From the sequence record PP919962.1: a stretch of DNA of 64,000 nucleotides; one strand, given 5' to 3'. A program made the position numbers and the translations under genes. This DNA is from Klebsiella phage KP2025. Positions 37,476-51,670 of this stretch are shown piece after piece; positions within the stretch are counted from its first letter, which is position 1; each line of letters begins with the position of its first letter. Below the pieces are notes generated by a model. That model had not been told where the DNA came from. It saw only the letters and a program-made list of their open reading frames with translations, and did no database searches.

Positions 37476-38060
37476 CCTGATATTATCTGATATTTTAAAA
37501 ATTTTATTTTTAGAATAAAGGGGGCGGGGGTTCAGATTTCCAGAGCCTCCAGCTTTCTAATCTAAATTACTACGTATTCTTAATAAATGATAACCGAATG
37601 TTCTCCCTACTTAAAACCAATTTGGAGCGAACATTTTTTGTTGCATAAACAGGTCATAAAACATAACCCTACCTTAGTTATAGAACAAATCAAAGGAAAA
37701 GTTTCTAAAATTATTTAAAGTTTCTACAGATTTCTTTGAACTTTTACCTAAAAACAAAATTTAAAATTTCCCTAAATTATTTAAACTTTTTCTGTATCTT
37801 ACTACAGAAAAAACGTAAACTAAAATTTAAAATTTCCAAAAAATTCCCCAATTATTAAAAGTTTTTCAACTTTTCGATCTGCATTTTTCCAAAAGCAAAA
37901 TTTAGAATTCTCTAAAAATTTCCAGATGCATATGATAATCATTATTATTTGCAAATGAGAATCATTCCCATTTAAAAAGTTGAATGAGAATCATTCTCAT
38001 CTACAAACCGAAATGATTCTCATTCGCATCTGCGGAATGACAGGCAGGTTCGGTGTTTGT
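37476..38060. repeat. AT-rich non-coding island with direct repeats and palindromes (ori / regulator-site candidate)
   Basis: AAAATTTAAAATTTCC at 37757 and 37822, variant at 37897; Fur-box-like TGATAATCATTATTAT at 37933; ATGAGAAT-C-ATTCTCAT perfect palindrome at 37984-38000; related half-sites at 37955 and 38012. Confidence 0.6.
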
Positions 38061-38063
38061 CTC
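38042..38063 (-). repeat. 22-nt repeat GAGACAAACACCGAACCTGCCT (inverted partner of 49354..49375)
   Basis: exact 22/22 match in opposite orientation, both followed by AATGAGAAT. Confidence 0.7.
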
Positions 38064-38246
38064 GCGATTCCCGTTACCCCTCGCCATGTAGAAATAATAA
38101 CACAACCAACACCAGGATCAAGCGTCTTTACATTTCTTTACAAAACTCATTAAGGCGATCTACCGGCGATCTACCTTACATCCAGTGCCCTGGTATGCTA
38201 GCCCCGTTTAACGCCAGGGGCGGCGCTTCCTCTTCTGTATGTGATG

Positions 38247-38276
38247 ATTATAGCCCAGCTTGCGCCAGGCTGTCAA
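38247..38276 (-). promoter_or_regulatory. leftward sigma70-like promoter (TTGACA-18-TATAAT) reading into the non-coding island
   Basis: minus-strand TTGACAGCCTGGCGCAAGCTGGGCTATAAT. Confidence 0.45.
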
Positions 38277-38281
38277 CACGT

Positions 38282-38476
38282 TTAATGAGAATCCTGGGAC
38301 AATCTTTTCTCGATCTCTCGTTTAGCCCGCTCCAGGCCTATCTCACCTTTATAGCCGATGATAGCGCAACGTGTGGAATGTGTGATCCCTGTCTTATACA
38401 CGTCATAACCGTATCCAACAATCTTTACCCAATATTTACCGCAAGGTGATTCGTAAGCAATATCTGACTCTTTCAT
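38282..38476 (-). CDS. hypothetical protein (64 aa)
   Basis: GAGG RBS 9 nt before ATG; preferred over the overlapping plus-strand ORF. Confidence 0.4.
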   Translation of the reverse strand: MKESDIAYESPCGKYWVKIVGYGYDVYKTGITHSTRCAIIGYKGEIGLERAKREIEKRLSQDSH

Positions 38477-38581
38477 TTTATTAACCTCGTTATGCCTCCA
38501 CCGTGGCGGCTTGATAACTACTATATACTAATGAAGGTAAAACGCAAGCGAAAAGATTTAGAAAATATTTGCATCCAAGTA

Positions 38582-38610
38582 TTGACGCGAGGATCACACC
38601 GAGCTATTAT
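38582..38610 (+). promoter_or_regulatory. sigma70-like promoter TTGACG-17-TATTAT
   Basis: upstream of 38663 gene. Confidence 0.5.
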
Positions 38611-38662
38611 TTCCTACACAAGGCGAGGCGATAGGCGCTGCGCGCACTAGGAAGAAAAGAAA

Positions 38663-38884
38663 ATGGCAACATTACACGTCGTAGTTTATAAGCACGCTGT
38701 AACGGGTGATGATATGATCCAGGTGCTTGTTAATGGCTTTTGTGAAATGGAAAGAGAAGGCGATTTTAACGGTTATTGTATTGTGTGTGCTTTCCTTGAT
38801 TCCCTGGTCGAAATGTGCGTGATCACTCACGACCAGCGCGAAGCGAAGATCAACCGCCTGAAAAAACTTTTAGATATCGAATAA
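38663..38884 (+). CDS. hypothetical protein (73 aa)
   Basis: ORF. Confidence 0.5.
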   Translation: MATLHVVVYKHAVTGDDMIQVLVNGFCEMEREGDFNGYCIVCAFLDSLVEMCVITHDQREAKINRLKKLLDIE

Positions 38885-38891
38885 AAACCGC

Positions 38892-38950
38892 TTGACAGAT
38901 TCACACAGTAACGTATAATTCACTTCATAGGCAGCGGGAATGGTTCCCGC
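38892..38950 (+). promoter_or_regulatory. early cassette: TTGACA-16-TATAAT promoter plus leader hairpin GCGGGAA-TGG-TTCCCGC
   Basis: hairpin 38934-38950 ends 23 nt before ATG 38974. Confidence 0.55.
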
Positions 38951-38973
38951 GCCGATACAAAGAGATTAAAATT

Positions 38974-39510
38974 ATGTCTGACATCATCGAAACTTTCAAA
39001 TTCTCCCGTAATAACATCGACTTTACTGTTAATGTAGTATGTGCACAATGTTATGATGGTTTTGGTGATCAATGGAAGATGACCGATACGCACGAGGGCG
39101 GCGTGACTATCAAAAATGCCGACGCCGGGCGGAATAGTTATAAATATGCCATTCCCCAGCAAACTACCCTGGCGGAGCTGGCAAGCTACTACGCTGCACA
39201 AGGGCGAGAAAACCCTAGCCGCGAAGCCTATGAAAGTTTACAGCGGCAATTATCACGAGATATTAACGCAAGTGATTATTATTTCACGGTTGACGCTAGC
39301 GCCGGATCTCATACCCTGTTAGATGGTGCGGTGATCGCTTGCGGGTTCGACTACTCATATGATGATGAGGGATCATTGTTAGACGCCGCCCAGGAAGTGT
39401 GGAAAGAGCACGATGGGGAAGCCGAAGCCCTGGAAGAGGCAACAAAAGCGGCGCGTGTTCTCTTGGAAGCTGTGGATGTGTTGAAAAGTATTGTTGAAAA
39501 CGCGCAATAA
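38974..39510 (+). CDS. hypothetical protein (178 aa, acidic C-terminus)
   Basis: ORF. Confidence 0.55.
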   Translation: MSDIIETFKFSRNNIDFTVNVVCAQCYDGFGDQWKMTDTHEGGVTIKNADAGRNSYKYAIPQQTTLAELASYYAAQGRENPSREAYESLQRQLSRDINASDYYFTVDASAGSHTLLDGAVIACGFDYSYDDEGSLLDAAQEVWKEHDGEAEALEEATKAARVLLEAVDVLKSIVENAQ

Positions 39511-39513
39511 TAC

Positions 39514-39542
39514 TTGACGCGCCCAAAGAAAGGGCGCATAAT
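39514..39542 (+). promoter_or_regulatory. promoter TTGACG-[GCGCCC aaagaaa GGGCGC]-CATAAT with palindromic spacer
   Basis: 17-nt spacer is an inverted repeat. Confidence 0.55.
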
Positions 39543-39572
39543 TCTCCTACACCAACAAAAGAGATTTGAAAA

Positions 39573-39863
39573 ATGAAAATTTCAGAGAACAAAGATTTAA
39601 TTTTCACCGTTAAAAATTATATCCGCCACCCGTATGAATTTGGCGGATATCCGAAAATTTTAATTATGCGTGATGGTAGTTGCCTTTGCTCAAAGTGTAC
39701 GCATGAAAATTTTCCCCGCCTATTGGAAGAATTAAGAGATGAGAGTGATCTAGCATGGATGCCCGCGGACGTGGATGTTTTCTGGGAAGGTGCGGATTTC
39801 CCGTGTGGTAATTGCGGGACTCCGATCCATAGTGCATATGGAGATCCCGAAGAAGAAGAATAA
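39573..39863 (+). CDS. hypothetical Cys-rich protein (96 aa)
   Basis: CLCSKC...CGNCG, acidic tail. Confidence 0.5.
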   Translation: MKISENKDLIFTVKNYIRHPYEFGGYPKILIMRDGSCLCSKCTHENFPRLLEELRDESDLAWMPADVDVFWEGADFPCGNCGTPIHSAYGDPEEEE

Positions 39864-39866
39864 ATA

Positions 39867-39924
39867 TTGACAAGCATCTAAAAGATAATAAACTGTTAAT
39901 CAAAGGGCGGGAATGGTTCCCGCC
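39867..39924 (+). promoter_or_regulatory. early cassette: TTGACA-16-TAAACT promoter plus hairpin GGCGGGAA-TGG-TTCCCGCC
   Basis: near-identical to cassette at 41452. Confidence 0.55.
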
Positions 39925-39944
39925 ACAATAAAGAGAGAAAAATT

Positions 39945-40091
39945 ATGAAACAACGTGTAATGAAAATCCACACCAACACCGGATCAACCGTTGTAACTCC
40001 CTCCCGTTTCGCTATCGCAAGCCGTTGCGCTCGTTTGAAACGTGAGTTAAAATCTAACCAGGGCGCGGGGTTTACCAGATGGGGGAAATAA
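39945..40091 (+). CDS. small basic protein (48 aa) missed by ORF track
   Basis: ATG 21 nt after hairpin; AGAGAGAAAAATT leader. Confidence 0.4.
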   Translation: MKQRVMKIHTNTGSTVVTPSRFAIASRCARLKRELKSNQGAGFTRWGK

Positions 40092-40098
40092 TAACGTA

Positions 40099-40359
40099 AT
40101 GAAGCCACTGTTTTTAAACTGTGAGGGCGAGGTGATCGCCTTCATGGATTCAACAGCCTACGATCTGGCACGGTATGCAATGACGTTTAAAGAGAACGTT
40201 TACAAACGGATTGGCGGCGGATACACTATCTTTAATCATCGTAATGCTGAGGTAAAGGACGTCACAAAGGTCGAGATAGGCAAATATCGGATCGGATGGA
40301 TGCCGTCAAGAGACGCGGCGAGCCTTTACCGTGTTTGCGAGTTAGTAACAAGGGGTTAG
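40099..40359 (+). CDS. hypothetical protein (86 aa)
   Basis: ORF. Confidence 0.5.
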   Translation: MKPLFLNCEGEVIAFMDSTAYDLARYAMTFKENVYKRIGGGYTIFNHRNAEVKDVTKVEIGKYRIGWMPSRDAASLYRVCELVTRG

Positions 40360-40362
40360 CCT

Positions 40363-40911
40363 ATGGGGCGCGAGCATGTTGTACAATCTTGGGTAAAACA
40401 TGATGAGGATGATTGGCGGGTAATACCGCCCCACCTCCTAGAAACTGCCAGCGGATACAGTGGCGAGCAAGTGGGGCAACGTGTAGCCCGTAACAACGGG
40501 AACACGGCGATTCGCGCCACGATTCCTGGTTGGCTGCCAAATGGCCGCGCCGACATTGCAGGGGCGGCAGATCCAGCGGATGAAGCAAAAGGTGATCCGC
40601 TACTGCTAGTAGATCCAGCGTTTAAGACGCTGTTAGAATACCCTAGCAAGGTGGCGGCACTGGAAGCGGCGTATCGGGCGGGTAAATTGCCGGATAGCTT
40701 ATATCGTAGCGCCTTGCGCGTCTTAGACGTGAAAGCAGATAAGGCACAGCGTAAAATTGATAAGCTGATTGGATCTGTCCTCCTGGAGGAAGAGAACGCG
40801 CCGGAGGAAGAGCCGGAGCTTGACCCGGTAGTCCTGGAAGAGGACGCGATCACGCCGTATCATCCTACGCCGGAAGAGGCAGCGCAAGCCCTGCGAAATT
40901 ATTTCAAATAA
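40363..40911 (+). CDS. hypothetical protein (182 aa, acidic Pro/Glu-rich C-terminus)
   Basis: ORF. Confidence 0.5.
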   Translation: MGREHVVQSWVKHDEDDWRVIPPHLLETASGYSGEQVGQRVARNNGNTAIRATIPGWLPNGRADIAGAADPADEAKGDPLLLVDPAFKTLLEYPSKVAALEAAYRAGKLPDSLYRSALRVLDVKADKAQRKIDKLIGSVLLEEENAPEEEPELDPVVLEEDAITPYHPTPEEAAQALRNYFK

Positions 40912-40915
40912 GGGA

Positions 40916-40976
40916 TTGACAAGCGCCCAAGAGGGGCGCATAATTCATCACATAGGGCGGCAATGATGCCGACACC
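40916..40976 (+). promoter_or_regulatory. early cassette: TTGACA-[GCGCCC aagag GGGCGC]-CATAAT plus GGCGGCA-like leader hairpin
   Basis: palindromic spacer; hairpin 40956-40976. Confidence 0.55.
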
Positions 40977-40990
40977 AAAGAGGATAGATT

Positions 40991-41107
40991 ATGTTAATCA
41001 AGAAAGAAAACTGCTTTTTCACTGGTATTATTAATGCGCTGATCCTTTCGGTTCCATTGTGGGTAGTTATCGGTTTTACTTTGTGGTTAGTATCAAAAGC
41101 AGCGTAA
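40991..41107 (+). CDS. small membrane peptide (38 aa) missed by ORF track
   Basis: hydrophobic helix. Confidence 0.35.
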   Translation: MLIKKENCFFTGIINALILSVPLWVVIGFTLWLVSKAA

Positions 41108-41114
41108 AAACTAG

Positions 41115-41175
41115 TTGACAGGCAGATCCAAAGGGTCTAATATTCATATCAAGGCGGGGAGATAGGCGAACCGCC
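41115..41175 (+). promoter_or_regulatory. early cassette: TTGACA-17-TAATAT plus leader hairpin GGCGG...CCGCC
   Basis: upstream of 41197. Confidence 0.5.
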
Positions 41176-41196
41176 AAAGCTGAAAAGGTTAGCATT

Positions 41197-41424
41197 ATGG
41201 CAAAGTCAAAAGGTTTTAACGGTCACAAAAACTGGAATCATTGGAACGTTTCATTATGGATCAATAATGACGAGGGATTATACCGCCTTGCAATGAATTG
41301 CATTTCATCCACTGACAACCGCGACGAAGCCGCCGCCAAAATGTTGCGCAGCGTGAGCAAGAAAACGCCGGACGGCGCACCGTACAGCAAAACCACGATC
41401 CGCGCTGCGATGGTTGGAATGTAG
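41197..41424 (+). CDS. hypothetical protein (75 aa)
   Basis: ORF. Confidence 0.5.
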   Translation: MAKSKGFNGHKNWNHWNVSLWINNDEGLYRLAMNCISSTDNRDEAAAKMLRSVSKKTPDGAPYSKTTIRAAMVGM

Positions 41425-41451
41425 AAAAATCGTCAATCTTATAAAATAAGG

Positions 41452-41507
41452 TTGACAACCTTCTAAAATAAAGTAAACTGTTAATCAAGGCGGGAATAGT
41501 TCCCGCC
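41452..41507 (+). promoter_or_regulatory. early cassette: TTGACA-16-TAAACT plus hairpin GGCGGGAA-TAG-TTCCCGCC
   Basis: paralog of 39867 cassette. Confidence 0.55.
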
Positions 41508-41526
41508 ACAACAAAGAGAGAAAATT

Positions 41527-41688
41527 ATGATTGCCATGAATACTCGCGAAGCCGCTCGCAACGTAGCCCGTAAAGTTAACGCCGTTGCACCTGCTAAATT
41601 GAAAGCACCAGTGAAAGGCGAAAACGGCTGGATCTTCCCTGGCTTGTCTCATGCTGACGGAAAAGGCACCTTGAGCCTGAAAAAATAA
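41527..41688 (+). CDS. small basic protein (53 aa) missed by ORF track
   Basis: ATG 20 nt after hairpin. Confidence 0.4.
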   Translation: MIAMNTREAARNVARKVNAVAPAKLKAPVKGENGWIFPGLSHADGKGTLSLKK

Positions 41689-41689
41689 G

Positions 41690-41726
41690 TTGACTTTTCG
41701 TTATGCCGTGCTATCCTGTACGGCAT
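41690..41726 (+). promoter_or_regulatory. promoter TAAGTTGACTTTTCG...TATCCT with -10 inside palindrome ATGCCGT-N10-ACGGCAT
   Basis: first of three paralogous promoters (41690, 42034, 42290). Confidence 0.5.
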
Positions 41727-41782
41727 AGAGAAAAAGAAACATCCGGCAATAATGCCAAAATCATCAATAAAGGAGATAAACA

Positions 41783-42027
41783 TGACTACTACTAACCTGC
41801 TGAAAACCCCGCGTATCGGTGATTCTGTATTCATTGGTTTTGCCACTAATGGGGACGGCAAAATGGTTAAAGGTGGCGCTGAAATTCCGTTCGATAAGGT
41901 GGCGGCAATCTACGCCGAAACTTCCACCACTAAGGACGGCAAAATCATGCATCATGTACGCACAGCAAGCGGCGACGCCGTTGCAGTGATCGGTTGTTCA
42001 AAAAACTACTGGCACGCTGTTAAATAA
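41783..42027 (+). CDS. hypothetical protein (81 aa)
   Basis: AAGGAG RBS. Confidence 0.5.
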
Positions 42028-42033
42028 ATATCG

Positions 42034-42070
42034 TTGACTTTTCGTTATAGCGTCCTATAATGGGCGCTAT
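42034..42070 (+). promoter_or_regulatory. promoter TTGACT-16-TATAAT with -10 inside palindrome TATAGCG...CGCTATA
   Basis: paralog of 41690. Confidence 0.5.
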
Positions 42071-42108
42071 AGAGAAGAGAAACTAGCCCAACAAAAGAGA
42101 GTAAGAAA

Positions 42109-42282
42109 ATGGAAATTATCGCAGAACTTAGAATAAAAGGTATCGATCCGGTCATTATGACTTATGAGGATCTGCAATATACCGTAACATATGGTGAACA
42201 ATCTGAAACTTACGATTATTACGATGAAGCGGAGCAGGCTTTTAACGCGTTTGCCGAGATTGCCCTAGATGAATATCGTTAA
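42109..42282 (+). CDS. small acidic protein (57 aa) missed by ORF track
   Basis: ORF. Confidence 0.4.
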   Translation: MEIIAELRIKGIDPVIMTYEDLQYTVTYGEQSETYDYYDEAEQAFNAFAEIALDEYR

Positions 42283-42289
42283 AAATAAG

Positions 42290-42326
42290 TTGACTTTCTG
42301 TGATGCCCCTTTATAATAAGGGGCAT
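42290..42326 (+). promoter_or_regulatory. promoter TTGACT-16-TATAAT with -10 in loop of ATGCCCCTT-TATAAT-AAGGGGCAT
   Basis: perfect 9-bp arms flank the -10 hexamer. Confidence 0.55.
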
Positions 42327-42362
42327 TGAAGAGAGAAGACCAACAATCTAACGAGGTGTAAA

Positions 42363-42584
42363 ATGGTTACATTTGCAATTATTTCCCTGGTGGCTGGCAA
42401 CGTGTTTATCAATGATACTTTCGCGGCGGATGATAGCAAGCCAGGAGAAATCAGCACAGCTTATGCAGATTGTAAAGCCGCTGAACGTATGTTATCGCCT
42501 TGCCTGCTGATGAGTGAACGCGAGGACGGGAAAATCGTATTCACCAACGTTGAAACCTGGTATCAATTGGTAGTTGCAAAATAA
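42363..42584 (+). CDS. secreted or membrane small protein (73 aa)
   Basis: N-terminal hydrophobic segment. Confidence 0.5.
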   Translation: MVTFAIISLVAGNVFINDTFAADDSKPGEISTAYADCKAAERMLSPCLLMSEREDGKIVFTNVETWYQLVVAK

Positions 42585-42632
42585 ATTTCATCTGATAGAA
42601 TACTGACATCACTTAAGTAAAAGGGAAATAAT

Positions 42633-42860
42633 ATGAAACGCAAAATCACTATTTCTTATGAGTGGACGCAAGCAGATGGTAGTGAAGTACTGGATCACCA
42701 CAAAGAGTACTTGGAAGAGTCAGCCGATGAGCGTATCCGGGAACAGATTGGAGCAGGTTGTATTAAGGGGCAATTGCTCGACAACATCCACACGCAGGAA
42801 GATCCCGACGACCACGAAGGGACAGAGTATAAAGGTTGGTGGACTTTAATTATCGAGTAA
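42633..42860 (+). CDS. hypothetical protein (75 aa)
   Basis: ORF. Confidence 0.5.
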   Translation: MKRKITISYEWTQADGSEVLDHHKEYLEESADERIREQIGAGCIKGQLLDNIHTQEDPDDHEGTEYKGWWTLIIE

Positions 42861-42947
42861 AATTAGTGGCAAAATAAATTTAGTACTTTATAATACTTAC
42901 CTACAGACAGATAGTCTGTTCTTATTTGACTACAACAGAGTAATGAA

Positions 42948-43100
42948 ATGAATCCTAATCATAAAATGATGATGGAAGCAAGCCGTTTTATCAATAAAAC
43001 AGAAAAAAGAAAATGTTTTGTTTTATGTCTCATAACGCTTGCAATTGGTTTAGCTTGTGTTATTATTACTTACGCTGATTTATCAAATACCACTAAATAA
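42948..43100 (+). CDS. small membrane peptide (50 aa) missed by ORF track
   Basis: ORF. Confidence 0.35.
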   Translation: MNPNHKMMMEASRFINKTEKRKCFVLCLITLAIGLACVIITYADLSNTTK

Positions 43101-43111
43101 GAGATAAGATT

Positions 43112-43468
43112 ATGAATAACATCCTGATCGAGAAACGCGCCGAACTGCTGGAAGTTAAACAGGCTATCTATGCAAAACAGAGGGAGATCCGCAACTTCTC
43201 TTATGAGTCAACTGATGATGAGTATGATTCTTATTTGGATGGATGCTATGGCGATCTTGACGTTTGCGGCAGCACTTTCAGCGCGTCCTATGCTCTTAAA
43301 AACCTTGACCCTACGGCGTACCGTTGCGGCAAGTCAGATTATGACAGCGAAAAAGATCTTGACGATGTGCCGGAGTATGTTACACTCACGGAAGAGCTGG
43401 AAGAGCTGGAAGAGCTGGAAAGCGATCTTGAAAGTGAGATTGAAGAGCTGGAAGAGAGCGAAGAATAA
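43112..43468 (+). CDS. highly acidic protein with LEELEE repeats (118 aa)
   Basis: C-terminus TEELEELEELESDLESEIEELEESEE. Confidence 0.55.
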   Translation: MNNILIEKRAELLEVKQAIYAKQREIRNFSYESTDDEYDSYLDGCYGDLDVCGSTFSASYALKNLDPTAYRCGKSDYDSEKDLDDVPEYVTLTEELEELEELESDLESEIEELEESEE

Positions 43469-43481
43469 TTTTAAAAACAGG

Positions 43482-43537
43482 TTGACACGGTAGACGGTTT
43501 AAAGTAGATTAGTATTCAAGGGGGAGCGGTTCCCCCC
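43482..43537 (+). promoter_or_regulatory. early cassette: TTGACA-17-TAGATT plus hairpin GGGGGA-GCGGT-TCCCCC
   Basis: upstream of 43561. Confidence 0.5.
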
Positions 43538-43560
43538 ACTAACAACAAAGGCGATACATC

Positions 43561-43932
43561 ATGAAATCAGCAGAGAAAATTAAATCTTACATCCTGGCGG
43601 CGATTGATTTTGAAGGTGAGAACGGCAAAACGTTTACCACCGAGGGAGAGAAGATCACCGAACTGATGCGCCGCTTTAAATGTGAATATTGGTATCCAGC
43701 AAATCAGCAGCGCTACGGCACCATGACAAAAGCAATGGCCTCGTGGTTGCAGGGATTGCCGAGTGAAATCGGCATTGCATTCTATTATGATGAGATTGAT
43801 TCTCTTTTGATTGAGTGGGGTTATCTGAAACATACTAGCCGCGAAGCAACAATTGACCGCGAGCGGGATCAATACTGGCTTTATCTGGCAGGTTCACTAA
43901 TGAGCCTTGCGAAGCGGTATAATCTAGCTTGA
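43561..43932 (+). CDS. hypothetical protein (123 aa)
   Basis: ORF. Confidence 0.5.
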   Translation: MKSAEKIKSYILAAIDFEGENGKTFTTEGEKITELMRRFKCEYWYPANQQRYGTMTKAMASWLQGLPSEIGIAFYYDEIDSLLIEWGYLKHTSREATIDRERDQYWLYLAGSLMSLAKRYNLA

Positions 43933-43961
43933 GATTGAATCTGGCATAAGATACACAATAA

Positions 43962-43979
43962 GAGCGGCAGCAATGCCGC
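43962..43979 (+). promoter_or_regulatory. leader hairpin AGCGGCA-GCAA-TGCCGCT (GNRA tetraloop family)
   Basis: upstream of small gene 44009. Confidence 0.5.
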
Positions 43980-44008
43980 TAACATTAAAATAAAACGAGG
44001 GTTTAAAA

Positions 44009-44143
44009 ATGAATGGTAGCCACCACGTCGAAAAAATGGCAAGCGATAAACAGCGAAAAGCATGGGACGATGAAACCGGGCGCAAAGGAGACAAGCGCAA
44101 CAAAACAAAACGAGATCGAAGTCAAAAACGGAATTGGGAATAA
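44009..44143 (+). CDS. small very basic protein (44 aa) missed by ORF track
   Basis: ORF. Confidence 0.35.
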   Translation: MNGSHHVEKMASDKQRKAWDDETGRKGDKRNKTKRDRSQKRNWE

Positions 44144-44145
44144 TA

Positions 44146-44178
44146 AGGAGGGGCGCTGAATGCGCCTCTTTCCGTTTA
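44146..44178 (+). terminator. rho-independent terminator AGGGGCGC-TGAAT-GCGCCTCT + TTCCGTTT
   Basis: GC stem plus T-rich tail. Confidence 0.5.
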
Positions 44179-44260
44179 TACAGCGTTTTCTATAGTGAGC
44201 CATACAAACACCAGGGAGCACCATAAAAACCGCTTAGAACGCATTACAGGAGCTTAGACA

Positions 44261-44443
44261 ATGACATTAGAACAGATTCAAAAGGCACTAGCCCAGGGCG
44301 GCAGACTTTCAGCACGTTACCGTGATCAATGGGGCTTTATCATTAGCGGCGTGATCCTGGCTATTGAGGGCGGCGACCTGCTGATCGATACCCTGAAAAA
44401 CCGAGTGAAGCCGGAGATGGTGATATCTATCAAGTACCTTTGA
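44261..44443 (+). CDS. hypothetical protein (60 aa)
   Basis: leader contains conserved CCGCTTAGAACGCATTACAGGAGCTTAGACA block. Confidence 0.45.
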   Translation: MTLEQIQKALAQGGRLSARYRDQWGFIISGVILAIEGGDLLIDTLKNRVKPEMVISIKYL

Positions 44444-44534
44444 TTGATAGGTTTAAACGATTAGACACTGCATCGATAATGGCACATAGTGAATACATAA
44501 AGCGGGGCAAAGGCCAGCTAGGGGAGGAAACGAA

Positions 44535-44918
44535 ATGAAAAAATTTATCATCGCCGCTATGCTGGCAGCAGTAAGCGCCAGCGCAGCAGCAGACACCGAG
44601 ATCAACGTGATGAGCGCAAGCCGTGATTTACGCGCCAGCATTGAAAAAATGTTAATTGTATCAGGCGATAATAACGCAACGTTACGATCTTACACCTTAT
44701 CAAAAACCTTTGAGGACGCGCTTGATTCTCAAATGATACCTATTCTCAATAATAACCCTGATGCATCATGCGAGCTTATCGCAGCGCGGATCGCGGAAAA
44801 CGGGCGGCAGAACTACGCGCCTTATCAGGTTAACCCACTTATGACAAGGGCTATCGATAATATGATCGGTAAAATGGTTGTTTATACTATGGCGCGGTGT
44901 TATTACTTAAAGGGTTGA
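44535..44918 (+). CDS. secreted protein (127 aa, signal peptide)
   Basis: MKKFIIAAMLAAVSASAAA. Confidence 0.55.
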   Translation: MKKFIIAAMLAAVSASAAADTEINVMSASRDLRASIEKMLIVSGDNNATLRSYTLSKTFEDALDSQMIPILNNNPDASCELIAARIAENGRQNYAPYQVNPLMTRAIDNMIGKMVVYTMARCYYLKG

Positions 44919-44943
44919 CAGGAAGCACTTGATCGATTATCTT
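44915..44943 (+). promoter_or_regulatory. promoter TTGACA-17-TATCTT
   Basis: upstream of 44974. Confidence 0.4.
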
Positions 44944-44973
44944 TAAGCCAGGCAAACAAAAGGGTAAAGAAAA

Positions 44974-45249
44974 ATGATTCAGGCTAACACTTTAATGATG
45001 TTTCAGGAAGTGCAAAACGCCGCTGTAATGGTTGAGCAATTCCAGGACGGCGACACCATGATCGCCACGTTGAAAGAGAACGCCGAAAGCATCCTAATCA
45101 TTAGCTTGAAAACAGTTTCAAAAGGTTACTACTCCCTTGCTTATCATTTCATTACTAATGATGATGAAACAAGCCAGGATTTTTCCTTGCCTTTCCCGGC
45201 AAATTATGCGCCTTCTTTTGTAGCGGCAATTGTTAATGATGTTTTCTAA
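44974..45249 (+). CDS. hypothetical protein (91 aa)
   Basis: ORF. Confidence 0.5.
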   Translation: MIQANTLMMFQEVQNAAVMVEQFQDGDTMIATLKENAESILIISLKTVSKGYYSLAYHFITNDDETSQDFSLPFPANYAPSFVAAIVNDVF

Positions 45250-45532
45250 TGGGTAACGAATAAAGAAAGTCAATAGCTTTTCCAGTTATTTTTCATTTTT
45301 GCGTTATGCAAAAAAGTGAATTTAAAGACTTCTCACGCAAGATGATTAAGGGTATGGCAAACGGTTAGAGCCTCTTAGAATGCGTTTTAGAGCGTTTTAG
45401 AGGGTATTGACTTTTCCCGAAATACTCAAAGCGTCTTAAATTTAGTTTCATCGTGTGATTATTTGCATACGGGTGCATTTCTATGCAATTTAGTGAATAA
45501 TGTAAAAATGCAGAATATTACATTCCTCCCTA

Positions 45533-45598
45533 TTGACTACCGCGCCCAATTTGTTATGATTTATCACATAGGGCGGGGCAATAATGCAGCGCCACAAA
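45533..45598 (+). promoter_or_regulatory. early cassette: TTGACT-16-TATGAT (half-palindromic spacer ACCGCGCCC) plus GGCGGGGCA...GCGCC leader hairpin
   Basis: upstream of ATG 45616. Confidence 0.5.
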
Positions 45599-45615
45599 AT
45601 CCGAAGGATTGCATC

Positions 45616-46074
45616 ATGAATAAATTCTGTGTAGGTCAAAAAGTTATTGATTGTTTCAATGATCGTAAACTGTTAACGATTGTTAAAACTTTTGAATCTG
45701 GTCAAATCGAGCTTGAAAACGGCGTGATCACCTATACGGATCGGGTTCAACGCCAAGAGCATTACCTTGACCATACAAATTACCTGTACCATCATTCTCG
45801 TTTTGGTGATGCTGTATGCATGATCAATGAAGCGTTTCAAGAGTACATTTCAGCACTTGCCGAAATGGGAGATTTATGCTCTTATCCTGGGGAATCTGTT
45901 TTCATAATGAAAGCGCGTACCATGTGCCAAACGTGGATCGACGAAGCCGCCGCGAGGATTGAGCATGGTTTAGCCTGGAAGCGTACAGCAGAACATAATT
46001 TATCACAGTGGTATCGTGTACCGCTTGATCATCACTTCCCATTCCTTAACCCTGAAAATGTGACAGACTACTAA
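45616..46074 (+). CDS. hypothetical protein (152 aa); ORF-track start at 45463 rejected
   Basis: AAGGA RBS 8 nt before ATG 45616; upstream extension would span the promoter. Confidence 0.5.
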   Translation: MNKFCVGQKVIDCFNDRKLLTIVKTFESGQIELENGVITYTDRVQRQEHYLDHTNYLYHHSRFGDAVCMINEAFQEYISALAEMGDLCSYPGESVFIMKARTMCQTWIDEAAARIEHGLAWKRTAEHNLSQWYRVPLDHHFPFLNPENVTDY

Positions 46075-46083
46075 AAAATAGTG

Positions 46084-46143
46084 TTGACAGCGCCCAATAA
46101 AGGGCGCATAATTCATTACATAAGGCGGGGAGTGGTTCCCCGC
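46084..46143 (+). promoter_or_regulatory. early cassette: TTGACA-[GCGCCC aataaa GGGCGC]-CATAAT plus hairpin GCGGGGA-N5-TCCCCGC
   Basis: palindromic spacer promoter class. Confidence 0.55.
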
Positions 46144-46161
46144 TAAATGAGAGATTTAATT

Positions 46162-46386
46162 ATGTTCGATTTAGACAGACTGGCAACAGCGATTGAAAAA
46201 GCAGGTGATGCAAAGTATGGCATCCAAGATCATTACTTTATCGGTCAATATCCTGATGGTACTTACTACGGTGTATTGTCTAATAAAGTGAAAAGCCGTA
46301 GCAGCGCCGCGCAACTGCGAAGCCCGGAATTTTTCGAACAAAAAGGCATTAAAGCGATCAAGGTTATGAAGCGTAAAGCTAAATAA
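46162..46386 (+). CDS. hypothetical basic protein (74 aa; alternative start 46147)
   Basis: ATG 19 nt after hairpin as in sister cassettes. Confidence 0.45.
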   Translation: MFDLDRLATAIEKAGDAKYGIQDHYFIGQYPDGTYYGVLSNKVKSRSSAAQLRSPEFFEQKGIKAIKVMKRKAK

Positions 46387-46388
46387 AT

Positions 46389-46418
46389 TTGACAACGCGC
46401 CCGGTAAGGGCGCATAAT
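46389..46418 (+). promoter_or_regulatory. promoter TTGACA-[ACGCGCCC ggtaa GGGCGC]-ATAAT with palindromic spacer
   Basis: upstream of 46448. Confidence 0.5.
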
Positions 46419-46447
46419 GCTACCAAGTCAATAGCGAGAGCGACAAT

Positions 46448-46684
46448 ATGAAAACGAAAAGCATTCTCATTAACAAAAAATTTCCCAATCGTGTATGGGA
46501 GATCAGCGAAGTGATCAACGCGGGGACGATTGAACAATATAACCGTTTGATCGGGTATATCCGGGAAACTGAATGCGGTTATGTGTGGACTCATTCTGGA
46601 CTAAACCGCGAAAGCGCAAGCTATTTCCCAACAAAACCCCTTGCGCTGGTAGGTTTAAAGCTGGTGCATCAAGATTATAAATAA
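46448..46684 (+). CDS. hypothetical protein (78 aa)
   Basis: ORF. Confidence 0.5.
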   Translation: MKTKSILINKKFPNRVWEISEVINAGTIEQYNRLIGYIRETECGYVWTHSGLNRESASYFPTKPLALVGLKLVHQDYK

Positions 46685-46691
46685 TTTATTT

Positions 46692-46725
46692 CGCCCCGGG
46701 GCTTGATCTCCCTGGGGCGTTTTGC
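46692..46725 (+). terminator. rho-independent terminator CGCCCCGG...CCTGGGGCG + TTTTGCTAT
   Basis: GC stem plus T run. Confidence 0.55.
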
Positions 46726-46740
46726 TATCCTTATTTTGTG

Positions 46741-46759
46741 GGCGGGAATGGTTCCCGAC
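46741..46759 (+). promoter_or_regulatory. leader hairpin GGCGGGAA-TGG-TTCCCGAC
   Basis: 19 nt before ATG 46778. Confidence 0.5.
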
Positions 46760-46777
46760 ACATAACGGGGATTTAAC

Positions 46778-47077
46778 ATGCAACCTTTACAATTACTTTC
46801 CACTTTACGCGCTATCGCCAACAACACTCTGATCGCTTGCCAGCGCCAGGAGTTTAAACCTGAATTCATCTATAAGAATCATAACCAGCAGTTAGCCACA
46901 ATTGAACAGGCAATTAGTGGTTACAAAATGGGGGTAAAGGTTAACGCGAAATATAAAGCGGAGATCAAGAAAATAACGCTTGCACCAATGAAGGAAAAGA
47001 CCTATTATCTAATCAGCGAGCAGGTGAAAGGCGGCGTAAGCCAGTTAACAAGCGCCATAGAATTTATGAAGCGCTAA
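46778..47077 (+). CDS. hypothetical protein (99 aa)
   Basis: ORF. Confidence 0.5.
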   Translation: MQPLQLLSTLRAIANNTLIACQRQEFKPEFIYKNHNQQLATIEQAISGYKMGVKVNAKYKAEIKKITLAPMKEKTYYLISEQVKGGVSQLTSAIEFMKR

Positions 47078-47088
47078 CAATCCAGGAG

Positions 47089-47106
47089 GGCGGCAGCAAT
47101 GCCGCC
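47089..47106 (+). promoter_or_regulatory. leader hairpin GGCGGCA-GCAA-TGCCGCC (GNRA tetraloop)
   Basis: perfect 7-bp stem. Confidence 0.55.
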
Positions 47107-47117
47107 AACAATGAAGA

Positions 47118-47381
47118 ATGAAAAACATCATTTACCGATTGACAAAACGCAACATTCTGATCGCTACTGTGATCGCTTGCCTTTTCGCTTTCGTTAGTAA
47201 CGCAACGTTTAACGCTGTGGGCGGGATGATGTTTAACGCTGGCAACGTTTCAACAGCTAACACAATGATCGACCTTTTGCAACTTTTCTTTTATGTTGCC
47301 TTTCGTTTAAAAATAGCTTGCAAACTGGATCGCTATGATGTACCTTTTATTTGTGGCGGCGTGATAGCTATTGTATGTTAA
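47118..47381 (+). CDS. small membrane protein (87 aa)
   Basis: hydrophobic helix; alternative 28-aa ORF from ATG 47111. Confidence 0.45.
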   Translation: MKNIIYRLTKRNILIATVIACLFAFVSNATFNAVGGMMFNAGNVSTANTMIDLLQLFFYVAFRLKIACKLDRYDVPFICGGVIAIVC

Positions 47382-47395
47382 CCGGAGTAAAAACA

Positions 47396-47688
47396 TGTTA
47401 AGATCTAACAAAAATTTAAAATTACGTCAATCCCTCGTTAATATGGCGATCAGTGTTGAGCCGTACAAACGAAAAGAGCCTAAGCAAGATATGCGAGGAC
47501 GGAAAACAACCTGGACAGATCAACAGGTATTAGAGATCCGGGCCTTACATAAATATGGCGGCATGTTACCCGCCGAAATTGCAGAACGTTACAACACGAC
47601 AAAAGGCGCAATAAATAGCTTGCTTTCTTATGTAACCCGCGTACACTTAGAGCCAGAAAGAAAACATTTACCAGCGAGAGAGGCTTGA
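47396..47688 (+). CDS. putative HTH DNA-binding protein (about 97 aa)
   Basis: GGAG RBS before ATG 47396; LPAEIAERYNTTKGAINSLLS resembles a helix-turn-helix. Confidence 0.4.
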
Positions 47689-47763
47689 CAATAGCAGCGG
47701 GTCTGGTAAAGTGTATCACGTAGGCCGAGGAATAAGCCGAAGCCCGTCAAAGAGGTTAGAAAC

Positions 47764-47961
47764 ATGTTTACTTACTTGCTAATTAATGATTCATCTAATG
47801 AAGTGGTACATACTGATAAACCATCTTTACCGGGTTTTCGTCATTTTGGTAAATATGAAAATTGCAAGCAAATTTCGTGCTTTACTGGAAAGGTCATTTC
47901 CACCGTTGAGGATGATTTGGAAATCCTCACAAAAATTTGTAACTTGCGTTTAACTAAATAG
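47764..47961 (+). CDS. hypothetical protein (65 aa)
   Basis: ORF. Confidence 0.45.
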   Translation: MFTYLLINDSSNEVVHTDKPSLPGFRHFGKYENCKQISCFTGKVISTVEDDLEILTKICNLRLTK

Positions 47962-47963
47962 GA

Positions 47964-48356
47964 ATGATTCTCATGTCCAACTTCGATATCTTTTTAGCGG
48001 CTTATATTGAGGCTATGTTGTGGAGTAGTAGCGGGACAACCCCGGACGGGGAAGATCTGGAAAGTCTGGAAGGGTTCGAACTTTCCACCGAAGCAAAACG
48101 CAAGGCAAAGGAAGAATGCGAACAATTCTTATTTGTATCACAGATCCTTTTCCTGGGGCTGCCTGAATGGTACGGAAAAGGCGACGGCGGGATCTATACT
48201 TATGCGGGGCATGATTTTTGGCTTACTCGCAACGGTCACGGCGCTGGATTCTGGGATCGTGGGCTTGAGGATATAGGCGACCGCTTAACAGAAGTTAGTA
48301 AAACTTTTGGGGAGCTTGATCCATACATTGGCGACGATGGGAAAATTTATTTTTAA
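47964..48356 (+). CDS. hypothetical protein (about 127 aa; start 47964 or 47973)
   Basis: leader contains GAATGATTCTCAT half-palindrome. Confidence 0.5.
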   Translation: MILMSNFDIFLAAYIEAMLWSSSGTTPDGEDLESLEGFELSTEAKRKAKEECEQFLFVSQILFLGLPEWYGKGDGGIYTYAGHDFWLTRNGHGAGFWDRGLEDIGDRLTEVSKTFGELDPYIGDDGKIYF

Positions 48357-48362
48357 AAACGC

Positions 48363-48419
48363 TTGCAACGCTGATCGCCGTTTGCTATAGTTACTTTGAA
48401 GGGCGGGAACTTCTCCCGC
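48363..48419 (+). promoter_or_regulatory. early cassette: TTGCAA-17-TATAGT plus hairpin GCGGGA-ACTTC-TCCCGC
   Basis: upstream of 48442. Confidence 0.55.
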
Positions 48420-48441
48420 TCAATCCTCAAAGGGTAAGAAA

Positions 48442-48705
48442 ATGGAAATCATCCTGGAACGTTACACCGTCAAAGAAACTGGCCTGATCGCTTTCAAACG
48501 TTTGGTAGTGGTTCAAAATGCAAATGGACTCTTTGAGGTTGTTAAAGAAGTTGATTATGGTCGGGGCGCTGGTGTGACAGTGGCAAAGATGCCTATCAAG
48601 CCTTATAAAACCCGTAAGGGCGCAGAAAAGGCGATGCAAGCCTATCAGCCTAAACGCTATCAAATGACCCTAGTCGAGGGTTTAATGATGGAAGGTAAAA
48701 TCTAA
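48442..48705 (+). CDS. hypothetical protein (87 aa)
   Basis: ORF. Confidence 0.5.
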   Translation: MEIILERYTVKETGLIAFKRLVVVQNANGLFEVVKEVDYGRGAGVTVAKMPIKPYKTRKGAEKAMQAYQPKRYQMTLVEGLMMEGKI

Positions 48706-48712
48706 CAATTCA

Positions 48713-48734
48713 GGGGAGCCGCTACGGTTCCCCA
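48713..48734 (+). promoter_or_regulatory. leader hairpin GGGGAGCC-GCTAC-GGTTCCCC
   Basis: 18 nt before ATG 48752. Confidence 0.5.
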
Positions 48735-48751
48735 TCTTTGGAATAATAAAA

Positions 48752-48946
48752 ATGACTAGTAGCGAAGAAATTAGAAAAGCCATAGCTGTTTTACGCTATC
48801 ATAACCGATTAAAGGTTATTAATGACCCTGATTATGTAGGATCAACATTTGAGGCGGATACATTGGACAGTATATCATCGTTAGCAGAGTTACATAAACG
48901 TATGACCGAAAGTAACAGATCGGATTTTATCGGTGGGGAAATATAA
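48752..48946 (+). CDS. hypothetical protein (64 aa)
   Basis: ORF. Confidence 0.45.
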   Translation: MTSSEEIRKAIAVLRYHNRLKVINDPDYVGSTFEADTLDSISSLAELHKRMTESNRSDFIGGEI

Positions 48947-48947
48947 T

Positions 48948-49274
48948 ATGATTATCTTTTGCAACATTCTCAAAAAGTATGTTTTCCAAATGTCAAGTTT
49001 TCGTGTCTATTGGTCTAAGCGTGGACACTACACTGCCAGCAGTAAAGCGGGAGCTATGCCAGGCACTGGAAACGGAGAGATCGAAAGCACAGGAGCCACA
49101 ACAGGAGAGGCCGTTAAAAACTTACATTTAGCCTTGATCCAACGTAGAGCAGCATTGCAAGCCAAAATTGAAGAGGTGGAGGAAGCAATGTATCAAGTCT
49201 CCCGTAATGGATGGAAAGCAGAGGATTTGTTATTGTTACCGAAAGAAGGCGAGATCGGCAGCAAGAAACGCTAA
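48948..49274 (+). CDS. hypothetical protein (108 aa; ATG 48948 preferred over GTG 48933)
   Basis: TAATATG junction with upstream stop. Confidence 0.45.
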   Translation: MIIFCNILKKYVFQMSSFRVYWSKRGHYTASSKAGAMPGTGNGEIESTGATTGEAVKNLHLALIQRRAALQAKIEEVEEAMYQVSRNGWKAEDLLLLPKEGEIGSKKR

Positions 49275-49287
49275 AATCTTTACAATT

Positions 49288-49318
49288 CCAGGGCTTGCTT
49301 TTTGCCCTGGTTTTGCTA
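49288..49318 (+). terminator. rho-independent terminator CCAGGGC-TTGCTTTTT-GCCCTGG + TTTTGCTATT
   Basis: paralog of terminator at 46692. Confidence 0.55.
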
Positions 49319-49353
49319 TTATCTTTTATAGGCGATGGCACCTGATGCAGGGG

Positions 49354-49375
49354 GAGACAAACACCGAACCTGCCT
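49354..49375 (+). repeat. 22-nt repeat GAGACAAACACCGAACCTGCCT (inverted partner of 38042..38063)
   Basis: exact match; second ACCGAACCTGG half-copy 20 nt downstream. Confidence 0.7.
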
Positions 49376-49661
49376 AGCATTCAGGGAAGCTAACCGAACC
49401 TGGACGCCTCCCTTCAAATGAGAATTACTCGCAACAAACATCGTGCCAACTTTACTTTCTAAATGAGAAAAATTCTTATTAGTGAGATCTATTTGTTTAT
49501 GAGCTAGGGTATTGCCAGGACACAAAAGCGCTTAAAATCGATTCTAGAGCGTTTTAAAGGTATGTATGTTTATACAGGACTTGAAAATAAATTTGACAAA
49601 GATTTTATAGTGTGCTATTCGCATATGATTGTTTTCTTTACAGTTCTTTACAAATCTACTC

Positions 49662-50147: not shown

Positions 50148-51670
50148 TGCCTATCGTTTAATGATAGCTTTTACCGATTGAAATCACTCACAGCAGAAAA
50201 GTGAATAAATCGCGTTATGAGGTTTTCTAAGCAAGGTTGACTAACTACCAGGGGCAAACGGTAAGCCGCTTAGAATGGCTTACAGGAGCTTTAAAGGGCA
50301 TAGCCACTATCTAAATAATCAATAAGTCCATAAATCTAACGATCTAATCAATAATGATAATCAATCTCATATATCCGTGATTAATTATGCAGAATATTGC
50401 ATAGTGTGATAGTGAGAATCATTTACAATCAAAGTAACAATTGACAATTTATCCAATCATAAACAATCAAATAATAAATAGATAAATAGTTATCTTGCTA
50501 ATCTATGCACCTGATATCATTTCAATAATTAACAATAACACAATAAAACAATCAACTAGTCAATAATAAGCAATGAAACTATTATTAACACTATTAATCT
50601 ACAATTCATTCTTACAATAATAATCTATGAAATAATTAGCAAAGAATGTATTAGCAAGCCTACGCGGGAAACGTAGGCTGCTAATAATAACACAACTACA
50701 CCACCTCATTTCGGAATAATCCCTGATTATCCCTCATGTGATTATGTAGCTTGCAATGCTTGCAAGCGTAATGATGTATGTGATACATCATAACACTCAC
50801 AATCATTACGTGTGTTATTATTAGCATATAAAGTAATTAACATTCTAACAGAATCATTCATTGTGAAACAATTAGCACACTATCTATTTGCGGAGGAATT
50901 ATTGAGTGAATAACGAAAATAATTCTATAGCTAATGATTAATGATAGAACTATTACGCAGCGAAAATATTACACGCTGAAGCGTGGAATGTTGAGCATTA
51001 ATGAGAATAAGAATTAATATTATTCGGGCGAGCAAATGCCCACGAAGTGGGCTATTGTTGAGCCACTTCTCTTAAAAGAGAAATTTTTAGGAATTATCTT
51101 GATTTTCGAGCCGTTTGATGCTATGCGCAGCATACCACTGTTCACTTATACAGTGGATTTGTCATGAGAATCGTTATCAGTCGCCTTTTGTGGCAATTTG
51201 GCACCTTGTAAACACATGTTTATTAATGCCAAACTATTGATTTATAAGGATTTATTGTCAGTTTATCGTGATGGGCATGGAATACGGTCAATCTTTGACC
51301 AAAAGTGTCGTAAGTTATTGAATGATATTAAGAATGAGAATGATTCGCATTGATATTTGGGACTCGCGGAAATTTGAAAATGGGGGTGCCCGAAAATCGC
51401 GTTAAGCACCTCTCGCAAGCGAGCCATATTACCGCCAACATATTGATATTATTGACATTTCTTTGCCAAATAGGGGGTGGCTTAAAAATTCCGGATATAT
51501 GGGAGAAATTTTGTAGTTTTTGTGGTAAATTGTATGTAAAATAATCAGCAATAATAATGTTTAATTGATAGATATTTCCGATGATAATCCTATGTAAATA
51601 GGGTAGCTTTTTATTTCCGGGTGTTGTAGGATGATTGTCATGAAAGATTGCTATGTGTAAGGAGAGAAAG
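50148..51670. other. 1.5-kb AT-rich non-coding island lacking ORFs, dense in short palindromes and hairpins
   Basis: hairpins AGCCTACG-CGGGAAA-CGTAGGCT (50657), GCTTGCAA-TG-CTTGCAAGC (50749), ATGATGTAT-GT-GATACATCAT (50771), CACGC-TGAA-GCGTG (50984), GCCCAC-GAAG-TGGGC (51037), GGTCAA-TCT-TTGACC (51286); GAGAATGATTCGCATTG at 51345; no ORF over 60 aa. Confidence 0.5.
51599..51618 (+). repeat. partial copy C of conserved element (TAGGGTAGCTTTTTATTTCC)
   Basis: shares the TAGGGTAGC-T-run core with 29326 and 60766. Confidence 0.4.

Follow-up and report, generated by a model that had tools for sequence, protein, structure and literature searches.

The window analysed here is a 64,000-nucleotide (nt) stretch of Klebsiella phage KP2025 (record PP919962.1), a myophage of the Stephanstirmvirinae whose nearest records are phi1_175008, KP13-26, FBKp34 and FKP3, and it contains a block of early genes which is bracketed, over 11.3 kb, by two copies of a perfect 22-nt inverted repeat, GAGACAAACACCGAACCTGCCT. 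The conserved core of this repeat is a 13-nt box, GAGACAAACACCG, which is found at a fixed distance downstream of a sigma70-type promoter and, in this phage group, next to palindromes that match the Fur-box consensus. We propose that each 22-mer would be the core of a separate short unit transcribed by the host RNA polymerase, two such paralogous units being placed at the outer borders of the early block and directed outward; it is this arrangement that makes them show up as an inverted repeat. The element has not been described before and falls into the general class of phage promoter-proximal non-coding signals. As for its mode of action, we tentatively favour an RNA hairpin with an invariant loop that a conserved host component would read; a serious rival is a DNA site bound by a promoter-associated protein.

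Two outward-facing copies and their conserved box

The 22-mer occurs exactly twice in the window, on the minus strand at 38042-38063 (left copy) and on the plus strand at 49354-49375 (right copy), where 0 copies are expected by chance, and none of 100 dinucleotide-preserving shuffles contained a match even when up to 3 mismatches were allowed, which bears out the perfect inverted repeat of the original prediction. The arms reach 29 nt at 93% identity, the box occupies 38051-38063 in the left copy and 49354-49366 in the right one, and both copies face outward relative to the early-gene block. As had also been proposed, the pair brackets the whole array of repeated promoter/hairpin cassettes, since families D1, D3, D5 and D8 all fall at 38.9-48.4 kb. 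Other details were only partly borne out. The preceding sequences are loosely related (CATGGCGAGGGG... on the left, TAGGCGATGGCA...GGGG on the right), and AATGAGAAT, which had been placed 15-35 nt after each copy, follows the left one by 17 nt (38016-38024, minus strand) and the right one by 41 nt (49417-49425), so that the range is approximate at best. The second half-copy reported after the right repeat, ACCGAACCTGG or ACCGAACCTG(G), is present at 49393-49403 on the plus strand (3 matches in the window against 0.11 expected) and the right-type element may form a second hairpin there; the two half-copies of this element both read ACCGGACCTG in phages of Salmonella and Cronobacter.

Each copy has a predicted promoter of its own. 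That of the left element, TTGATC-16-TATTAT with a TG before the -10 (38094-38121, minus strand; predicted start at about 38087), keeps its hexamers in relatives while its spacer varies. That of the right element, TTGCTT-16-TATTAT (49295-49322, plus strand; predicted start at about 49329), scores 8/12 here and 9/12 in relatives, its -35 being TTGACT in CR8 and FKP3, and it overlaps a terminator-like hairpin of the upstream operon (49288-49310). A sigma70-type promoter precedes the box in all 33 distinct contexts, its end lying 23-40 nt (mostly 27-31) away, and the mean best promoter score was 8.64/12 against 6.53 ± 0.25 for shuffled upstream sequences, a difference of about 8.5 standard deviations which none of 300 shuffles reached. 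Judged by sequence, a promoter of its own, as demanded of a stand-alone small RNA, was present throughout these contexts, and these promoters probably fire. The original prediction had pointed to a strong outward promoter near the left copy and to a non-coding transcript from it. The promoter is indeed there (TTGACA-18-TATAAT, 38276-38247, minus strand, 12/12) and a non-coding transcript stays plausible in that each copy has its own conserved promoter, but the strong promoter belongs instead to a separate RNA, RNA-A, described below, and the closer one at 38121-38094 had been overlooked.

Both copies lie in non-coding blocks which are 70-86% identical in phages of Salmonella, Cronobacter, Escherichia, Erwinia, Pectobacterium, Enterobacter and Proteus, while the genes flanking the two blocks diverge across the same comparison. 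The left block matched 359 phage records, including a minority of T5-like phages that match over the palindrome array only, and the right block matched 90. The left copy itself is kept in phages of Klebsiella, Salmonella, Cronobacter, Escherichia, Erwinia and Pectobacterium, in far more than 100 related genomes; hence, in relatives with the same gene order, it is the pair that can be absent (as in the single-copy genera), but not the element. Within it, the 13-nt box shows rare variants at position 8 only, and CCTGC usually follows 2-4 nt later. In addition, Klebsiella, Salmonella and Cronobacter phages are near-identical over the approximately 60 nt that separate the predicted start from the first Fur box, whereas the promoter spacer and the flanking genes diverge, so that a transcribed unit fits better than a single protein site.

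The perfect 22/22 identity, on the other hand, is not a conserved property, since relatives show 0-6 differences between the left and right 22-mers. One difference was counted in SPLA5a, 2 in FBKp34 and KP13-26, 4 in CR8, 5 in FKP3 and 6 in phi1_175008 and POP17, against 0 in this window, EspYZU12 and UViG_3300048919_000048. The left copy of these last three genomes shows the states of the right one, which are absent from near relatives, and the close relatives of EspYZU12 and UViG_3300048919_000048 carry 1-6 clustered differences between their copies. This pattern suggests that identical copies arise by occasional, repeated short gene conversion between the inverted copies. Moreover, the Phapecoctavirus phages UP17 and anhysbys and the Henunavirus phage Hena1 have the left copy only (within the approximately 10-19 kb looked at on the early-array side), which speaks for two copies independent of each other, and diverged versions of the element are present in the rV5-like phage TH18 and in Mydo.

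The box was also found in unrelated phages, with four copies of GAGACAAACACCG on a 46.8-kb IMG/VR contig (IMGVR_UViG_3300027123_000194; L019 at 246-265, L209 at 1783, 2695-2714 and about 3333) and others on GC-rich contigs of 86-88 kb without Fur boxes. On the 46.8-kb contig each box starts 23-24 nt past a TATAAT-like -10 hexamer and is intergenic, with a terminator on one side and the promoter of the next gene on the other, and again without Fur boxes; a U-run lies 7-10 nt past the box in 3 of the 4 copies, with no clear GC-rich stem. The orientation of the box relative to its own promoter is always the same, these unrelated contigs included, and the genes beside the element in them gave PHROGs matches to families of unknown function only. 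Since a promoter-linked box occurs in unrelated contigs, its range extends beyond this phage group, and its contexts indicate a promoter-proximal transcribed element. Wider scans added little: with the loose pattern GAGACAAACACCGNNNNNGC, nearly all matches in bacterial genomes were chance ones within genes, the pattern being too loose, and few true members were gained from viral contigs (L162, L209, L216), while a metagenome scan with the box plus AATGAGAA returned 2 true members only and did not widen the diversity.

Possible readings: RNA hairpin, DNA site, antisense pair or crossover site

In the mechanism that we tentatively favour, the polymerase would start at the sigma70-type promoter, the -10 of which ends about 28-31 bp upstream of the box, and would transcribe about 20 nt of G-rich leader, followed by the invariant GAGACAAACACCG and by CCUGC(C). 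The leader would pair with the C-rich 3' part (CCG plus CCUGC), so that (G)AGACAAACA would be displayed as a hairpin loop of 9-17 nt, made within the first 45 nt or so of the RNA and just ahead of at least one Fur-box palindrome. The loop would be read by something shared by many hosts, perhaps the transcribing polymerase or an associated factor, as a pause, anti-termination or termination-type signal; alternatively, a small RNA of 60-90 nt might have this hairpin as its body. The extent of transcription would, in turn, be gated by Fur bound downstream.

The comparison of contexts is consistent with such a structure. At least three leader types (i to iii) are found 5' of the box, ATGGCGAGGGGTAACGGGAATCGC, GGCACCTGATGCAGGGG and ATAGCGGGGAGAATTGACCCG, and a box-closing helix of 3-5 bp is possible in 16 of the 18 contexts tested (for example UCG/CGA, GCG/CGC, GGCG/CGCC, CCGG/CCGG and GGUG/CACC), the other two allowing 2 bp only. 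The covariation seen amounts to one compensatory pair and several wobble-compatible changes; a U-A to G-C double change distinguishes the left copies of Klebsiella and E. coli phages, with a U-G intermediate in EspYZU12. Furthermore, the homologous site of TH18 can form the hairpin AGGAU-AAGACACUG-AUCCU and the diverged homologue of Mydo the hairpin CCGG-AGUACAAAACA-CCGG, both with an A/C-rich loop. The summed helix length also exceeds that of shuffled sequences (61 against 52 ± 4.1), though marginally, as 135 of 5000 shuffles reach it and shared ancestry is uncorrected.

Nevertheless, a number of results weigh against an element acting as RNA. Single-sequence folds were no more stable than those of shuffles (z from +0.86 to -1.9), the duplex energies between leader and 3' flank were no better either (mean z = -0.32), and RNAalifold, owing to the high conservation of the sequences, recovered hardly any compensatory changes. 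No intrinsic terminator was found on the same strand downstream of either copy, and the left unit runs into an AT-rich region and then antisense to plus-strand genes, with no obvious gene that it would serve. The literature searched contained no transcript data for this phage group; the search on the motif, on Fur boxes in lytic phages and on transcriptomes of these genera yielded only a paper on the Xanthomonas Fur box as useful. Lastly, a DNA site for a promoter-associated protein would be expected to look the same, with 13 invariant nt at constant spacing from a promoter. Rfam 15 gave no match at gathering score anywhere in the window and, at E<=10, only hairpin look-alikes over the palindromes and none over the 22-mers, and a scan of the window for tRNA and tmRNA genes found none.

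In the form of this rival that we considered, the box would be a double-stranded DNA site for a host or phage protein and would make up, together with the Fur-box array, a composite operator or boundary at the edges of the early region. Its role might be that of a roadblock or insulator limiting early transcription, or it might belong to an origin or to a region controlling entry. Several points speak for such a site: the box is strictly invariant whatever the leader type, it stays at a near-constant distance from the -10 hexamer and, with leaders of types i and iii, it is followed by the first Fur box at a constant spacing of about 10 nt; in the right element A is replaced by G in both ACCGRACCTG half-copies at once, which fits a single reader of repeated sites; and the thermodynamic support for an RNA structure is weak. 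However, the 60 or so conserved nt around the box make a long stretch for the site of a single protein, unrelated phages have the box but no Fur boxes, the box is asymmetric and keeps one orientation relative to its promoter, differing leaders are still complementary to its 3' part, and there is no candidate binding protein. We regard the DNA site, with the roles given to it, as a serious but rather unlikely explanation.

A further possibility, which seems to us improbable, is that the copies are a matched antisense pair, in which the RNA of one border would be complementary to opposite-strand transcripts crossing either border, the hairpin loop serving as the first-contact ('kissing') loop and the 22/22 identity being selected. 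The opposing promoters would be the plus-strand site at 37919-37948, which is overlapped by a Fur box, and the CpxR-box minus-strand promoter at about 49604-49652, and convergent promoter-like sites with Fur boxes between them do exist at both borders. The 22-nt identity in the window, EspYZU12 and UViG_3300048919_000048, as against the 1-6 differences of near relatives, implies repeated homogenisation or selection for identity; neutral gene conversion, however, explains the identity in three lineages equally well. Moreover, a cis-antisense partner co-varies automatically, which leaves the invariance of the 13-mer in unrelated phages without explanation, many relatives have a single copy, and the opposing promoters are weak consensus matches.

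The original prediction had also offered the repeats as boundaries of an invertible or recombination-prone module, that is, as crossover sites at which the early-gene block could be inverted or swapped. A perfect inverted repeat bracketing a discrete 11.3-kb block, with signs of occasional gene conversion between its copies, would agree with it, and short inverted repeats around a discrete DNA segment are known from the Hin/Gin/Cin systems (hix/gix sites). Nevertheless, this idea was dropped and is given hardly any weight. In the ten genomes with two copies that were compared for orientation (the window, FBKp34, KP13-26, phi1_175008, FKP3, SPLA5a, EspYZU12, CR8, POP17 and UViG_3300048919_000048) both copies point outward, 7.7-12.5 kb apart, and none of the ten is an inversion isomer, since a right-type leader always joins a right-type 3' flank. 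Most genomes differ between copies at 1-6 of the 22 positions, and the single-copy Phapecoctavirus and Henunavirus relatives retain the same layout. No recombinase was found by a Pfam scan of the 10 largest or nearest open reading frames (ORFs) at 34.7-50.1 kb, smaller ORFs not being scanned; only an AAA ATPase, DUF6939 and gp30.8 were recognized. Read from its sequence, GAGACAAACACCGAACCTGCCT has no internal dyad symmetry and does not form the imperfect palindrome of about 26 bp that defines Hin/Gin-type crossover sites. Finally, inversion would set about 45 co-oriented early genes against the flanking transcription. The repeat is thus not to be taken as evidence for an invertible or swappable module.

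Among known systems, the hairpin reading recalls nutL/nutR of lambda (and putL/putR of HK022), which likewise consist of two identical short inverted copies, each directed outward from its own early promoter at the edges of the early control region, with a hairpin of sequence-specific loop read co-transcriptionally. Unlike these, the leaders here, AUGGCGAGGGGUAACGGGAAUCGC and AGGCGAUGGCACCUGAUGCAGGGG, have no boxA-like (CGCUCUUA) sequence, the predicted loop has 9-17 nt instead of being a GNRA-like pentaloop, and the left copy has no downstream genes for anti-termination to act on. The HK022 put RNAs have a two-stem-loop architecture, and we know of no N-like protein in this phage group. The coupling of a short non-coding unit to Fur-box palindromes also resembles Fur-regulated promoters and small RNAs such as RyhB, but here the boxes lie at about +55 to +150 of the start and not over the -35/-10, and there is no Rfam match; to our knowledge, RyhB has no sequence similarity to the element.

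Several other identities for the element were considered and dropped. A mimic of type I-E CRISPR repeats has only a partial likeness to the ends of the Klebsiella repeat, and the element is common to phages of hosts with different repeats; a complement of the tRNA T-arm or of the signal recognition particle RNA came down to mere 9-nt matches. Reading of the sequences also led us to discard a CsrA or Hfq site, a boxB-like GACAA loop and a consensus pause element, as well as a small ORF, since no start codon follows the GGAG.

If the hairpin reading is right, an undescribed element would be at work in a large and therapeutically popular group of Enterobacterales myophages (the rV5, phi92 and PVP-SE1 relatives), and the invariance of its 13 nt even in unrelated phages points to a conserved host partner. 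Its setting, with early-block borders, Fur- and CpxR-like sites and segments shared with T5, would provide handles on the timing of early transcription and, possibly, on DNA entry and on the binders of the T5 palindromes.

Regulator-box matches and RNA-A

Four Fur-box-like 19-bp palindromes starting at 37931, 37954, 37983 and 38012 (spacing 23, 29 and 29) form an array at 37931-38030, which transcription proceeding from the left 22-mer would meet after 12 nt. Two such sites lie downstream of the right copy, the one at 49417-49435 being a half or weak site and the one at 49462-49480 a palindrome. With up to 3 mismatches, the palindrome AATGAGAATnATTCTCATT (9-1-9), of which AATGAGAAT is one half, has 10 matches in the window against 0.08 expected, including further ones at 50353, 51333, 46453, 47957 and 48115. 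It is exactly the Fur-box consensus defined in Xanthomonas, given as AATGAgAATcATTctCATT and 84% identical to the Shewanella and Bacillus consensus (PMC1790865). The site at 37931-37949 contains ATGATAATCATTAT, a match to the classic E. coli type, and in other phages with leader types i and iii the spacing between the element and the next Fur box is constant at about 10 nt. Such matches make Fur a candidate ligand of the palindromes, although a phage protein may bind them instead.

The CpxR-box consensus, as cited in PMC9603713 a tandem GTAAA-N(4-8)-GTAAA upstream of a promoter, has only 2 matches in the window against 0.31 expected, a number reached by 3 of 100 shuffles. The left one, TGTAAAGAAATGTAAAGA (38125-38142, minus strand; core GTAAAGAAATGTAAA at 38127-38141), is an exact GTAAA-N5-GTAAA that ends 3 nt upstream of the -35 of the left element and is near-invariant across phage genera. 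The other, likewise exact, lies at 49635-49652 on the minus strand (core GTAAAGAACTGTAAA at 49637-49651), and both extend to TGTAAAGAnnTGTAAAGA, each 25 nt upstream of a minus-strand -10 element. In the second case this is a -10-like TATAAA at 49604-49609, without a -35, so that the region 49604-49652 looks like an activator-type promoter directed back at the right copy; the -10-like element and the segment downstream of it are conserved in the left terminal repeat (LTR) of the T5-like phage Slocum. The suggestion of regulator sites marking the domain thus stands in part: Fur- and CpxR-box consensus matches adjoin the repeat and the blocks bound the early region, while occupancy of the sites is a prediction.

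The strong promoter at 38247-38276 (minus strand), which is conserved, appears to drive RNA-A, a putative structured non-coding RNA of about 100 nt (38140-38241, minus strand), separately from the repeat unit. RNA-A is conserved in relatives and is laid out as CGCC-loop(CCCC)-GGCG ... GGGG, a hairpin with a variable loop, and a 3' hairpin followed by a U-run; the CGCC/CCCC/GGCG element and the GGGG could form a pseudoknot. One hairpin pair changes from A-U to G-C in 4 of 11 sequences, and no Rfam match was obtained for this RNA. Its promoter shares the hairpin-in-spacer form of the promoters in the early array (38930-48420), where repeated cassettes carry a GC hairpin in the spacer (TTGAC-GCGCCC...GGGCGC-ATAAT; families D5, D8 and D19) and where GGCGGGAATGGTTCCCGCC hairpins (D1, D3) are also found.

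The genome end and the T5 parallel

The position of the early block in the virion could be deduced from the terminal repeats of related records. The first 343 nt of phi1_175008 are identical (100%) to its last 343 nt and map to 51061-51403 of the window, the FKP3 record opens with the same segment duplicated, and Hena1 has an annotated terminal repeat of 519 bp at the same relative position. Consequently, the window spans the physical genome ends, with the equivalent of a direct terminal repeat of about 343 bp at 51061-51403, and the early block is the last 13 kb or so of the virion DNA; distances to the right end are about 2.0 kb for the right copy and 13.3 kb for the left one. A long terminal repeat covering the early block, at which oversized records had hinted, was replaced by this direct evidence for a short one.

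The palindrome array is 77-86% identical, over 62-75 nt, to the inner end of the T5-like LTR. The untranslated repeat regions of the T5 LTR hold a proposed injection stop signal, in an analysis which makes no mention of Fur (Davison, bioRxiv 10.1101/866236). The T5-like locus has 4 consensus palindromes within 520 bp (L004, 1586-2100), in the region of Davison's palE and palG-J. In addition, a non-coding segment of about 94 nt at 49484-49577 is 84% identical to the LTR of Serratia phage Slocum (L250, 1501-1594). The counterpart in Slocum sits between T5.008-like and T5.011-like genes; the segment contains the hairpin AAAGCGCT...AGCGTTTT, GGTATGTATGTTTATACAG and a conserved -10-like element, and similar segments are present in T5-like phages of Pectobacterium, Yersinia and Vibrio.

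In both systems, then, a terminal early (pre-early) region is bordered on its inner side, about 10-13 kb from a genome end, by a large non-coding block with arrays of the same 19-bp palindrome and these shared stretches. Long inverted repeats occur as a pair in T5 as well, where they are placed between two of the repeat regions. The differences are that the 22-mer and the 13-nt box were not found in the T5-like locus examined, that the terminal repeat has about 343 bp here instead of 10 kb, and that the T5 inverted repeats carry DnaA boxes, whereas the copies described here have none nearby: no DnaA box was found at 23.7-52.9 kb, and the 8 in the whole window are the number expected by chance.

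The palindromes, the shared segments and the position at the genome end are the basis for a more speculative reading, to which we give little credence, namely that the two blocks act together as an analogue of the T5 injection-stop region and control entry and the early phase, the parts of this system being the hairpin box, the Fur-box arrays, the CpxR-box promoters, RNA-A and the T5-like segments. By this analogy, and with the same slight likelihood, the terminal 13 kb or so would enter and be expressed first, and the block at 37.5-38.3 kb, bound by Fur and CpxR, would gate the rest. Equally doubtful is the last step, in which strong, ORF-less, inward-reading promoters and the conserved RNAs would drive or license what follows. 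We know of no report of two-step injection in this phage group. CpxR is a sensor of envelope stress, and staged delivery of this kind, if true, would be tied to host regulators of iron and envelope stress and be common to the Demerecviridae and the rV5/phi92-like myophages; Fur would likewise become a concrete candidate for the long-unexplained palindromes of T5.

Two further repeat regions were observed near these blocks. At 37697-37923, just past the left Fur-box array, AT-rich DNA (GC about 25%) contains three copies each of two interleaved repeats (AAAATTTAAAATTTCC-like) with a spacing of 66-75 nt, which could be bent DNA, an unwinding element or iterons. At 50454-50653, five copies of a 24-nt AT-rich repeat (CAATAATAAGCAATGAAACTATTA-like) occupy non-coding DNA between a gp30.8-like gene and the terminal-repeat region.

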